Shown here: in pieces, positions 1,248-4,413 of the stretch
How positions within the stretch are numbered: position 1 is the first letter of the stretch
Layout of the letters: each line of letters opens with the position of its first letter
Assembly (NCBI GenBank): GCA_964388035.1
Contig: CAYLZE010000117.1
Span: 4,894-15,120, forward strand
Reading direction: 5' to 3'
Length of the DNA: 10,227 nt
Source of the DNA: an uncultured archaeon
Lineage (GTDB): Archaea; Asgardarchaeota; Lokiarchaeia; Sigyniarchaeales; SOKP01
The notes under the pieces: generated by a model
Told to the model about the DNA's origin: nothing
Seen by the model: only the letters and a program-made list of their open reading frames with translations
The model's database searches: none
Translations under genes and position numbers: made by a program

Positions 1248-3980
1248 TTGAGAATGTTTGACCTAGAAGATTTTCAACAATATCCTTCGCTAATCCCAAT
1301 TATAAAAAAGTTAGAAAAAGTCATAAACAAGCAAAATAACTCAAAAATAGTAAAAGAATTAAACAAATTAGAAGAATTAATTAAAGAAAAAGACTTACAG
1401 ATTCCAATCTCATACATTTTAAGTTTGGTTGTTGAAAATTATCCGGATACCCTTTCAGAAGCTCTTCTTCAAAAAGTGGTTCCCTTTTTAGAAAATAAGA
1501 ATGAAAAATTAAGAATTAATACTATATTGATAATTGGGTTTTTCTCGCTTCATGATTCAGAACAAGGCAAGAAATATTTTCCTTTATTATTTAAATTTTT
1601 AAATGACTCTTCAGAAGATGTGAGGATTAACATTCACTATTTTTTGGGAGAATTGGTAAAAAAAGATATTTATAATGAGCTCTTGGATGAAAAAACTATT
1701 ATAAATTCTCTCATGAGCGAATCAAACTTAGAAAACATTAATGCTTTATTTTCTTTATTACAAAAACTCACTTCATTAAATTTTAAAAACCTATTGCTTG
1801 TAAAAAAAAGATTACAAGAATTAAGCCCTCAATTTTTAAAAGACAATCGCTTAGGTAATCAAACGAATTTTATTCCAGTTATAAATAGATTTTTTCCATT
1901 ATTAGGCAAATTAGATTTAAATAAATTAAGTTCTGAAGAATTAAATAAGCAACTTGAAAACTATTTCTTAATGTCAAGAATTGAATTCCATCTAAATGAG
2001 AAGGAGGGAAGAAATTTCCAAGAATTTTATTCGGAATTTAAAAGGACCGTCATTGAAAATGATATCATTTACAATTTTTTCCCATATAAAGAGAGAGGTA
2101 TTACAGTTTTTTTACAATTCGAAAAAAATAAACTTTTAGAATTTTTTGAAGAAAATAATAAGATTTCTCAGCAGGAATTATTAGATACTTTCTCAATAAT
2201 TCAGAACACGAAAGAATTAAAATCGTTCATTATTAGATTAATCAAATTAAGCTTCATTAAGGGGTATTACTCAGATTTAGGATATTTTTACCCACATAAT
2301 TTTATTAAAAAAGAATTGACGGCTACATATTATAATGATGGAATGATAAATTTTAATGATTTCAATTACCTACCTAAAAAGTATGTAATGGAAATTTTTA
2401 AAGAAATTCTTCTTGAAAAGAAAGATAAAGTACTCATGGGCAAAGATCAGGATATACTTTATTCACTCGGAAGAATACAGAAACAAATTAACTCAGAAGC
2501 ACCGAAAGTAAGTTGTATTGATCTTCAAGACTATAGAAATAAATTGACAGATAGCGATTTTATTAATTTGATAAAAAATTTACCACAAGGTTATTTAACA
2601 AAATATCATAAGGGTACTAACTGGTTAACGAATCTAGGAAAATTGAAAATTGAACAAGAAATTAATAATTCTAAATTAATCGGGTTTTTTGATTTCCCCC
2701 GTGCTGCTAATAAATTAGGAATTCAGGCTCTATTATTATTAGATATTTTTGATCTCATTGTGGATAAAAGAAGCGGAATTTATGATAAAAAGGGGGAAAT
2801 ATTCTACTATACAAAATATTTGAATCAGAAAATACAGGAAATTAAATTTATTTCCTTGGAGGAAGAAAGAAAAATCCGAATTAAAACGCTAGCTGATGAT
2901 TTAAATATTAATGAGGGACAACTTACTAATCAAATCGATGAAAATTTGCAGCTTATCGGGCAAGAAATTAAGAATAGGGATCAAATCAAAATCAGCGAAT
3001 ATCTTGAGAAAACGGGGATGGATCGATCTAAATTCTTAGACTTTATCGACGGGTTGGAGATCAAATATCTGATAAAGGGAGATTTATTGATCATAAGTGA
3101 ACGGAAGATTAAAGAGGCCGAGGCCGAAATTAAAGATGATATAATTAAAAAATCTGAGATTTTAAACTCCATTTCTTTTAAAGATTTCGATATCAGCTCA
3201 GAATACGCAAAAGAATTAATCGAATCATTAATCAAGGAGCAAAGATTAAGAGGAATCTTTTCAAAAGGTGAGGATGAAGAAATATATTTCACGGAACGAG
3301 GAATAGAAAAATTGATGATAGAAAATAATTTCCTTTTCTCTTTCCGCGACCTTTTTCCGGGGAAAGAACTTTCAGATGAAGAAATAAATATATTAAAAGA
3401 CACGATGGGTAGACTTCAAGGCAAAAAACTTTTAAAAGGGAACTTTAATGAACAAGAGTTATCTTTTTCAAGTAATGATATTTTATTCGCTAATGATTAT
3501 AACTCTTATCTTTTTCAGTTTCAAAAACTCACGAATAATTATATACAGATATTTAACAGAGAGTTCGAAAAAATTAAAGGAGTATTAATCAAGAAAGATC
3601 AGACCATTTTCCCTCAAGAAATTAAGAAAATTCAAGACATTATTGATGGAATGAATGAAAAAGTAATAAGGTGGAGAAATAATTTGGATTCTTTCATTAA
3701 TAATGCATCAAAAAAATTATTAAAAGCTCAAGGCATGACTCTAAAAAGAATGCGTTCCTTTTCTTCCGTTGAAGAAAAGAAAGAGATTAAGGTCTTTAAA
3801 GAGGATGCCGATGTAAGAGATTTAATGGATGATTTCACGTTATGGGTGAAAATATTTAACAATATAGAACTTAAATATGCGAATGTCATATTTTATCAAA
3901 AAAGATTGATTACTAATCCCGGAGATAAGGATTTAAAAGAGAAGTATAACGCGCTTTTAGACGAATTATACATGGAATAA
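1248..3980 (+). CDS. Large HEAT-repeat plus tandem winged-helix (PCI/UFL1/DDRGK-like) protein with a helical C-terminus; function unknown
   Basis: 910-codon ORF (TTG at 1248, or ATG at 1254). HEAT-type repeats at aa ~70-140 ([51 protein letters not shown]). From aa ~292-742 there are recurring ~55-65 aa units ending in 'Lxxxxx(I/L)xG + beta-hairpin + aromatic' ([76 protein letters not shown]). The gene is near certain and the domain call is about 0.65. Confidence 0.7.
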   Translation: [910 protein letters not shown]

Positions 3981-4009: not shown

Positions 4010-4303
4010 TTAATCGGGAGGAATTTTTTTATTTTTAATGTCATCTAGATATTTTGGAACATCAATTTTATCCAACCTGTTAATTTTGTAATTCATGGGT
4101 GAGTGGGTTCCATTTTTTTCTAATATGCCTTCAGCTTCAAGATACTTCAGAGCTCTCCAAATGAAATTAATTTTTGAACGATTGCTTGATTTAACATTAT
4201 TACATCTCCTTATTCGTTTTGTATTTACTACAAAAACTGAATTATCGATTAATTTATTAATTACATCAAGAGTCTCTTCTAAATTTTTGAGAAAGAAATC
4301 CAT
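4010..4303 (-). CDS. Small basic hypothetical protein, probable winged-helix DNA-binding fold
   Basis: 97 aa from ATG 4303 (TTG 4309 is an alternative). SKINFIWRALKYLEAEGILEKNGTHSPMNYKI fits a recognition helix, then 'L..L...G.L', then a wing hairpin. Convergent with the 910-aa gene across a 29-bp gap, with an upstream BRE/TATA candidate. Confidence 0.7.
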   Translation of the reverse strand: MDFFLKNLEETLDVINKLIDNSVFVVNTKRIRRCNNVKSSNRSKINFIWRALKYLEAEGILEKNGTHSPMNYKINRLDKIDVPKYLDDIKNKKIPPD

Positions 4304-4413
4304 TGTCAAAACGTACCTTTATAAATTGAATTTAAGGGGGTAACCAATAAAAGTATGGACTAAATGAAATGAAATTTTATTTACTACTTTCTAAATCTTA
4401 TTATTCACATTAA

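Follow-up and report, generated by a model that had tools for sequence, protein, structure and literature searches.

A HEAT-fused protein of Asgard archaea carries a distant homologue of the UFL1-DDRGK1 winged-helix array

Described winged-helix scaffolds and the window protein

Ribosome UFMylation was long held to be purely eukaryotic. Its UFL1/UFBP1 pair consists of seven PCI-like winged-helix (WH) domains followed by a helix stack (PMC9627666, PMC10937380). That UFL1 and DDRGK1 (UFBP1) derived from Asgard archaea has already been published, in one sentence of the literature; the protein described here, a HEAT-fused paralogue, has no such earlier description. It is encoded in the window, the whole stretch of 10,227 nucleotides that was analysed.

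UFL1 plus DDRGK1/UFBP1 (PDB 8qfc, 8ohd, 8b9x, 8c0d; PF09743, PF09756) gave the best structural match to the window protein. Common to both are a chain of PCI-like WH domains, a backbone built from their first helices, and a helix stack after the chain. The window protein is one chain, whereas UFL1-DDRGK1 is two, and it lacks the split pWH/pWH' domain. It has eight units (seven WH domains and one wingless unit) against seven in the pair. UFL1-DDRGK1 has a membrane anchor, which the single-chain protein would lack. Where UFL1 has its UFC1-binding N-terminal helix, the window protein carries a HEAT/ARM domain followed by an alpha/beta unit, and nothing like the long N-terminal helix of DDRGK1/UFBP1 stands ahead of WH1 in the model. 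The C-terminal helices span about 160 aa against about 270 in UFL1, whose C-terminal domain covers residues 515-786 in 8qfc, with no detectable similarity between them.

A further counterpart exists in the same organisms. The Asgard "PCI domain-containing / DUF2042" family (P0122, G000 contig 7, about 789 aa), a better UFL1/DDRGK1 relative encoded on another contig of the same genome, is also a single chain that bridges the DDRGK1-to-UFL1 junction. It differs in the zinc ribbons at its N-terminus, in the number of its WH domains, which is five, and in its beta-sandwich and Vps28-C-like tail; unlike the window protein, it is recognized directly by the PCI, DDRGK and UFL1 models of Pfam. Its conservation is far higher, with 66-85% identity among members versus 37-51% in the HEAT-fused family.

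Among proteins with other functions, the PCI domains of CSN4/CSN2, the Rpn lid subunits and eIF3a superposed on single WH domains, chiefly on WH6 (for the CSN4 WH, Z 8-9.4, rmsd 1.8 Å, 22-24% identity). These proteins share with the window protein a helical repeat domain upstream of the WH; however, they have one WH after the solenoid, through which they assemble into a horseshoe, whereas the window protein has eight consecutive units. The C-terminal four-WH array of SelB, which contacts RNA and the ribosome, was a secondary and much weaker structural match (Foldseek E about 4e-3); the window protein has neither the GTPase domain of SelB nor a sequence link to it.

Gene, family and domain layout

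The whole gene occupies positions 1254..3980 of the + strand and encodes 908 aa plus a stop codon. The ORF finder had started at the TTG at 1248, giving ORF 1248-3980 (+) and a 910-aa numbering; the starts of homologues agree with the ATG at 1254, which is likely the start codon. Residue numbers below follow the 908-aa protein, and those of the preliminary description, whose segment 2121-3473 corresponds to residues 292-742 of ORF 1248-3980, are higher by two. The searches returned over 120 homologues, each about 908-911 aa long. All are annotated as "hypothetical", and Pfam misses most members of the family. Within the same GTDB family, 67 of 68 genomes matched a profile of the array, as did all seven genomes of the sister family; most carry a single whole copy, and second matches look mostly like pieces of one gene split between contigs. 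By this profile search the HEAT-fused family is near-universal within one Asgard order, and no member was detected in the remainder of the Asgard phylum sample.

AlphaFold2 modelled the whole protein confidently, with a pLDDT of 84.7. Because ARM/HEAT matches dominated the VIA-align result for the whole model, the array was also folded alone (pLDDT 88.9, pTM 0.65). The modelled order was an ARM/HEAT domain, an alpha/beta unit, seven WH domains with one wingless helix-turn-helix (HTH), and a C-terminal helix stack, all coordinates being on the + strand. The N-terminal ARM/HEAT solenoid (aa 1-237; 1254..1964) had weak Pfam Cnd1/HEAT matches, below threshold in the window protein (weak Cnd1 matches occurred in 36 of 41 family members), a profile match to the archaeal HEAT protein 2db0_A in the PDB (E 1.8e-4), and VIA Z scores of 15-16 to HspBP1 and the beta-catenin ARM repeats. 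Foldseek with the whole model also matched the HEAT regions of Scc2 and Integrator. The small alpha/beta unit ahead of the array (aa 238-290; 1965..2123) was seen in the AlphaFold2 models.

The array begins with WH1 (aa 291-347; 2124..2294), WH2 (aa 348-404; 2295..2465), WH3 (aa 405-459; 2466..2630) and WH4 (aa 460-519; 2631..2810), the last being among the strongest units by sequence signal. The models and hhalign then place the first two helices of a wingless three-helix HTH (aa 520-553; 2811..2912), whose third helix (554-573) doubles as helix 1 of WH5 (aa 554-613; 2913..3092). Its counterpart in the hhalign alignment to the PF09743-positive Asgard family is that family's fifth WH. WH5 matched the DDRGK1 WH fold with Z 7.3-7.6, a likeness of fold only. 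WH6 (aa 614-680; 3093..3293) is the most canonical PCI-like WH, and WH7 (aa 681-740; 3294..3473) was recognized from the model and from unit-by-unit hhalign. The preliminary description had divided the array into eight WH-like units, with boundaries that agree with the modelled domains to within a few residues; seven of the eight proved to be true winged helices, and the fifth (524-565) is an incomplete one.

Seven units of the array share one fold in the AlphaFold2 models. In unit-by-unit hhalign, WH6-WH7 (about 80%) and WH2-WH6 (about 66%) were also related in sequence, and the remaining pairs were alike in fold only. The WH repeat exceeds chance.

In the whole-protein model, four long helices at the C-terminus (aa 745-908; 3486..3977) form a stack. 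Searches with Pfam, hhalign and Atlas features found no relative of these helices: the UFL1 C-terminal families PF23659/PF25870 had no Pfam match among 27 members, hhalign did not align the helices with the Asgard paralogue's Vps28-like tail, and the sole Atlas feature match, 0.79, was at chance level. Foldseek alignments of the whole model to UFL1 spanned 659-775 columns.

Relationship of the array to UFL1 and DDRGK1

Structural comparison placed UFL1 and DDRGK1 ahead of all other families. In Foldseek against the PDB, five UFL1 or UFL1-DDRGK1 chains ranked on top for the array, among them 8qfc_B (E 5.5e-10, 453 columns), 8ohd_A (4.5e-9), 9gy4_E (2.4e-7) and 8b9x (5.6e-7); the next families were RPC82 (E 3.7e-4) and then SelB, and the whole-protein model gave the same leading matches. 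VIA-align, a method independent of Foldseek that was run on 48,161 representative chains, also ranked the UFL1-DDRGK1 chimera 8b9x_B first, with Z 10.0 and 234/255 residues over WH1-WH4; the runner-up matches at Z 8.1 were single PCI WH domains. A shape search of the ESM Atlas returned, in order, an Asgard PCI/PF09743/PF09756 cluster, two eukaryotic UFL1 clusters and SelB, with TM-scores of 0.29-0.34 for eukaryotic UFL1 and 0.28 for the SelB clusters. The models, Foldseek and VIA all showed a contiguous array of PCI-like WH domains with a helical backbone, as in UFL1. Identity to UFL1 was 10-13%, and the multi-domain superposition was loose (rmsd 7.6-7.8 Å over four domains, TM-scores ≤0.4). 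The proposal of the preliminary description that the array is UFL1-like was thus borne out: UFL1/DDRGK1 outranked the WH domains of SelB, ESCRT-II, RPC82, CSN and transcription factors, and the match was colinear over several domains.

At the sequence level, the Pfam comparison that the same description had suggested turned out negative for the window protein itself, which stayed below threshold for PF09743, PF09756 and PF01399, both whole and as the array alone; for the PCI model, E was 0.66 for the array, and two of 27 members reached E 7e-4. Three distant orthologues with the same HEAT-array-tail architecture passed PF09743 (E3_UFM1_ligase; cut-off 23.2 bits) with 36.8, 32.8 and 26.8 bits, and the genome search added passing family members in G213 and G089. 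The family therefore touches the UFL1 model, and this member does not. PF09743 matches are spread more widely over the phylum than the HEAT-fused family, and within the order of the window they belong mostly to the PCI/DUF2042 family. A profile of the orthologues, searched against 177,635 PDB sequences, placed the DDRGK1-UFL1 chimera at the top (E 1e-4), followed by UFL1 (E 0.011). With a profile of the close family, neither the PDB sequences nor a set of 1.84 billion representative proteins gave a UFL1 match, and across Pfam, NCBIfam, the PDB and those representatives the protein and its close family matched only HEAT-type proteins and family members.

The array is also linked to the PF09743/PF09756-positive Asgard family. 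In hhalign it matched that family with 93.6% probability and E 2.1e-7 over 235 colinear columns; reversed and column-shuffled controls scored ≤25 versus 60 for the real pair, and WH4 matched WH-d of that family at 88-92%. We conclude that the array is a real but distant homologue of the UFL1 plus DDRGK1/UFBP1 tandem PCI-like WH array, and that the window protein is a divergent paralogue of the better conserved Asgard protein that matches both the DDRGK and the UFL1 models of Pfam.

For the register of the array on UFL1/DDRGK1, three tests agreed: VIA against the UFL1-DDRGK1 chimera, the Pfam match of orthologue P0315, which maps to residues 375-563 of the window protein, and hhalign taken together with the positions of the Pfam matches in the Asgard paralogue. 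They favour a register in which WH1 corresponds to WH1' of DDRGK1/UFBP1, WH2 to the composite WH, and WH3-WH4 to UFL1 WH1-WH2; WH2 is thus a complete WH at the place where UFBP1-UFL1 has the composite pWH'-pWH. Shifted registers also occurred, in an alternative hhalign alignment (71%) and in two orthologues that match PF09743 out of step, and a weak HMMER match of the array was displaced by one unit. The seven WH domains were not equated one-to-one, as an exact mapping, with UFBP1 WH1', the composite WH and UFL1 WH1-5, because there are eight units and repeats admit shifted registers. Three peptides that the preliminary description had paired with human UFL1 lie at the residues it gave (656-671, 347-375 and 422-445); the proposed pairings would imply a register other than that favoured by the three tests.

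Genomic context and possible function

UFM1, UFC1, UFSP and CDK5RAP3 had no Pfam match in the genome, which is 96.7% complete, and PF03671 (UFM1) had none among 301 Asgard genomes. This Pfam negative is weak, because a 2026 study based on structure models reported divergent Ufm1-like proteins from nine Asgard clades (PMC12962969). The genome carries three E1-E2 cassettes and ubiquitin-like genes, and its three E2s are encoded on contigs 42, 38 and 13; its ThiF-type E1-like genes number seven. Five loci were compared (the window, L008-L011, L013) and showed vertical synteny only. The neighbours were a HAD hydrolase gene upstream in most loci, a small convergent ORF, purH and an IMPDH gene; of these, purH, IMPDH and HAD are uninformative on function. 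Near the gene, the five loci held no Ubl, E1, E2, ribosomal or translocon gene and no SMC or kleisin gene.

Taken together, these results probably describe a scaffold protein with a UFL1/DDRGK1-related WH array, a paralogue of the PCI/DUF2042 family that would act as an elongated adaptor. The gene product would be a non-enzymatic scaffold of Lokiarchaeal-type Asgard archaea, its WH "helical backbone" stretched out on a large partner, while further proteins would be brought in by the HEAT domain and the C-terminal helices, with no need for canonical UFM1 or UFC1. By analogy with UFL1 the large partner might be the large ribosomal subunit, a suggestion we hold to be rather doubtful.

We consider it unlikely that the protein is instead a generic tandem array of PCI-like or other WH domains, serving in a complex of another kind (lid/CSN/eIF3-like or ESCRT-II-like) or binding nucleic acid as SelB does, and that its likeness to UFL1 arises because UFL1 is the only long PCI-like WH array in structure databases. 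Such an array would fit the finding that WH6 alone matches the PCI domains of CSN4, CSN2, Rpn subunits and eIF3a as well as anything, the nearness of the SelB and UFL1 TM-scores in the Atlas, and unit-to-unit sequence similarity that is not limited to one register. Against it, UFL1 chains were at least three orders of magnitude ahead of SelB, RPC82, STK19 and ESCRT-II in Foldseek, the Pfam model that orthologues pass is specific to UFL1 rather than to SelB or ESCRT-II, the orthologue profile put UFL1/DDRGK1 first among PDB sequences, and the protein as a whole lacks a basic character (pI 6.0; 4.9 for WH5-7). That near-neutral charge also bears on a chromatin or DNA-organising factor in which winged helices that bind DNA would be joined to a HEAT module like that of condensin. 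The widespread weak Cnd1 matches, the Foldseek matches to Scc2 and Integrator, and the frequency of DNA binding among WH domains would suit such a factor; but the Cnd1 matches are sub-threshold in the window protein and typical of any HEAT repeat, its WH domains belong to the PCI type, whose contacts are mostly with proteins, and neither SMC nor kleisin genes lie nearby. We regard this possibility as extremely improbable.

A working scaffold-type E3 of an Asgard Ubl pathway would position an E2 that carries either ubiquitin or a divergent Ufm1-like protein on its substrate, for instance the ribosome. Homology to the UFL1/DDRGK1 ligase core, the E1-E2 cassettes and ubiquitin-like genes, and the reported Asgard Ufm1-like proteins speak for such an enzyme, which we nonetheless judge very unlikely: Pfam found no UFM1, UFC1, UFSP or CDK5RAP3, the E2-binding helix alpha-1 of UFL1 is missing, with the HEAT domain in its place, and none of the five loci compared has a Ubl, E1 or E2 gene linked to it. 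With the same Pfam result and the lack of a UFC1-binding helix, the proto-UFMylation role that the preliminary description had offered as a candidate is not supported.

Under the preferred reading as a UFL1/DDRGK1-related scaffold, the UFL1-type WH scaffold gave rise to single-chain architectures of at least two kinds as it diversified among Lokiarchaeal archaea. Both have an ordinary complete winged helix where eukaryotic UFL1 and DDRGK1 meet, and they thereby supply a concrete model for the origin of the two-protein ligase. More speculatively, and with little confidence, the two may be single-chain UFL1-DDRGK1 scaffolds of which the HEAT-fused one would be a ribosome-docking or quality-control adaptor, working without canonical UFM1 or with divergent Asgard Ufm1-like proteins, and a living relative of the pre-eukaryotic precursor whose fission inside one winged helix gave UFL1 and DDRGK1. 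They are two defined proteins with which a role of the scaffold before UFM1 can be probed, be it ribosome handling, ubiquitin-like conjugation or something else, and orthologues are probably present in cultured strains.

Architecture of the window protein

The tandem winged-helix (WH) array is part of a single long gene, for which the ORF finder gave 1248–3980 (+). The ATG at 1254, a start that agrees with those of homologues, gives a 908-aa product. In the 910-aa numbering of the preliminary description, nucleotides 2121–3473 correspond to residues 292–742, and the three peptides quoted there were found at the positions assigned to them.

The whole protein was modeled confidently with AlphaFold2 on a 41-sequence alignment (pLDDT 84.7), and the array was also folded alone (pLDDT 88.9, pTM 0.65). 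In the 908-aa numbering, the model contains an ARM/HEAT solenoid (aa 1–237), a small alpha/beta unit (238–290), the winged helices WH1 (291–347), WH2 (348–404), WH3 (405–459), WH4 (460–519), WH5 (554–613), WH6 (614–680), and WH7 (681–740), and four long C-terminal helices (745–904), for which no relatives were detectable. A wingless three-helix HTH begins at aa 520, and its last helix (554–573) is also helix 1 of WH5. The boundaries of the eight repeat units proposed earlier agreed with the model within a few residues, but the fifth unit falls short of a complete winged helix. Only some units resembled one another in sequence; unit-versus-unit hhalign gave probabilities of ~80% for WH6–WH7 and ~66% for WH2–WH6.

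The predicted pI is 6.0 overall, 8.95 for WH1–4, and 4.9 for WH5–7; because the protein is near neutral overall, general nucleic-acid binding is not suggested. The HEAT domain (1254–1964, +) matched PDB 2db0_A, a stand-alone archaeal HEAT protein of 253 aa, almost end to end (E 1.8e-4).

Structural likeness to UFL1/DDRGK1

When the whole model was compared with the PDB by Foldseek, ranks 1–4 went to chains of human UFL1 and to the UFL1-DDRGK1 chimera, with 659–775 columns aligned. For the array alone, the top five were UFL1 (8qfc_B, 8ohd_A, and 9gy4_E) and the chimera 8b9x, with E values of 5.5e-10 over 453 columns for 8qfc_B and 5.6e-7 for 8b9x; RPC82, TFIIIC, CSN4, SelB, STK19, cullins, and Vps25 came next, after a gap of three orders of magnitude in E value. 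VIA-align, which is independent of Foldseek, placed 8b9x first among 48,161 representative chains (Z 10.0, rmsd 7.6 Å), with 234 of 255 residues aligned across WH1–WH4. At Z about 8 or lower, every other row was a single WH domain, in most cases a PCI domain from a CSN, lid, or eIF3 subunit. An ESM Atlas shape search ranked first an Asgard cluster with PCI, PF09743, and PF09756 (TM by query 0.40), followed by two eukaryotic UFL1 clusters (0.34 and 0.29) and then SelB (0.28). UFL1/DDRGK1 therefore led in four structure searches, and generic WH families did not rank at or above them. Because the superpositions were loose and array–UFL1 identity was only 10–13%, structure alone would also be compatible with convergence among tandem WH arrays. 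Unlike UFL1, the window protein has neither the E2-binding helix alpha-1 nor a split pWH.

Sequence links and register of the array

The window protein itself gave no match to the Pfam UFL1, DDRGK, or PCI models suggested for checking the preliminary description, and a profile of its close family did not reach UFL1 among PDB sequences. A link was found through a paralogue encoded by the same genome, P0122 (789 aa; contig 7, 51027–53396, +; L001:817–3186), for which three Pfam models score above their cut-offs: PCI at 78 bits, DDRGK at 55, and E3_UFM1_ligase at 54. Members of its highly conserved family (66–85% identity) are annotated as "PCI domain-containing" or "DUF2042", and P0122 consists of N-terminal zinc ribbons, five PCI-like WH domains, a beta-sandwich, and a Vps28-C-like tail. 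The array aligned with this family by hhalign at 93.6% probability (E 2.1e-7) over 235 colinear columns, with a score of 60 versus 25 or less for reversed and twelve column-shuffled controls.

Distant orthologues share the length, HEAT matches, and array position of the window protein. When seven were scanned as arrays, three passed PF09743 (cut-off 23.2 bits): P0315 at 36.8 bits (E 4.6e-9), P0256 at 32.8, and P0259 at 26.8. The genome-wide PF09743 search also matched the orthologue in two genomes, G213 and G089. This signal is fragile, since the match was not listed at E 0.01 for full-length P0315. When a profile of twelve distant orthologues was run on the full set of 177,635 distinct PDB sequences, the DDRGK1-UFL1 chimera headed the list (E 1e-4), with UFL1 in second place (E 0.011) and DDRGK1 in fourth.

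UFL1/UFBP1 (UFBP1 being DDRGK1) comprises seven PCI-like WH domains, namely WH1', a composite WH, and WH1–5; first helices of the WH domains make the backbone, a stack of helices follows the array, and nearly all the WH domains contact the 60S subunit (PMC9627666, PMC10937380). In P0122, the DDRGK model (profile 102–181) stops where the UFL1 model (24–234) starts, inside one winged helix; P0122 is thus colinear with the DDRGK1 C-terminus joined to the UFL1 N-terminus. WH2 fell at this junction in three tests: hhalign of the array with the P0122 family, the PF09743 match of P0315, which maps to window-protein residues 375–563 (WH2 helix 3 to the wingless HTH), and the VIA comparison, in which the chimera's four WH domains align with WH1–WH4. 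The favored register equates WH1 with UFBP1 WH1', WH2 with the composite pWH'-pWH, and WH3–WH4 with UFL1 WH1–WH2; shifted registers also scored, as repeats would predict, and it is therefore not proven.

The tandem WH array described earlier is confirmed, and structure and sequence independently support the view that it is UFL1-like. Because the protein fails the Pfam model and lacks the split pWH and the alpha-1 helix, it is strictly speaking no member of the UFL1 family; it is best described as a Lokiarchaeal paralogue of the UFL1/DDRGK1 scaffold, made as a single chain and fused to a HEAT domain. The match to 2db0_A hints that the HEAT module was gained by fusion. Scaffolds of this type were already known, and what is new here is the single-chain HEAT-fused variant; no description of the HEAT-array-tail architecture was found in the literature, so it is apparently undescribed. 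By analogy, the protein might act in proto-UFMylation or bind ribosomes, as had been proposed.

Distribution, UFM1 pathway genes, and gene surroundings

Homologues form >120 clusters, almost all of 903–920 aa with 38–51% full-length identity, and all are annotated as "hypothetical". All come from Asgard metagenome bins labeled Promethearchaeota or Lokiarchaeota, with some Hod-, Hermod-, Thor-, and Heimdall- labels. Against 1.84 billion representative proteins, the array HMMER profile gave 71 matches, every one a family member or fragment. Among 301 sampled genomes of the phylum, it matched 67 of 68 in the same GTDB family, 7 of 7 in a sister family of the order, 0 of 2 in other families of the class, and 0 of 223 in the rest of the phylum, where more divergent relatives could escape detection. 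The gene is therefore near-universal in one order, and genomes mostly carry a single whole copy. Matches to the Pfam UFL1 model were more widely spread in the phylum than this gene.

UFM1, UFC1, UFSP2, and C53 were reported as confined to eukaryotes (Picchianti et al.), and a structure-based 2026 study described homologues of Ufm1 from nine clades of Asgard archaea (PMC12962969). A check for pathway genes with Pfam found no UFM1, UFC1, UFSP, or CDK5RAP3 in the 96.7% complete genome. The UFM1 model PF03671 matched nothing in 301 Asgard genomes; it is thus blind to the published divergent Ufm1-like proteins, and its negative result is weak evidence. Seven ThiF-type E1-like genes occur in the genome alongside three E2 genes and two ubiquitin-like matches; they make up three E1-E2 cassettes (contigs 42, 38, and 13), all of them away from the window-protein gene. 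A UQ_con (E2) match at G000:C38:34206–34655 (+; 80.6 bits), neighboring a ThiF E1-like gene (C38:35762–36982), contains one in-frame TAG; the gene may be broken, the TAG a sequencing error, or the stop recoded.

The window is AT-rich (GC 26–40%) and has no tRNA genes; its minus strand carries purH, IMPDH, a saccharopine dehydrogenase-like gene, and a radical SAM gene. Gene conservation around the orthologues (loci L008–L011 and L013 compared) reflects vertical synteny only. ORFs of 228 and 73 aa lie upstream of the gene at 116–802 (−) and 1019–1240 (−), with no family match save a weak Yip1-like one; related loci have a HAD hydrolase (+) at this place, so the upstream side was rearranged in this genome. 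A conserved ORF at 4010–4309 (−; 93–99 aa) is convergent to and abuts the 3' end of the gene, and its product is basic and WH-like (KINFIWRALKYLE...GIL), with no Pfam family. Its counterparts occur in L008–L011, overlapping the gene by 4 bases in L008, and are missing from the sister-family locus L013. Outside the window, a few kb upstream of the orthologues, related loci encode a conserved actin-fold protein of ~505–525 aa with C-terminal zinc-ribbon matches (L008:4805–6322, L009:2909–4423, L010:836–2413, and L011:2832–4352, all −).
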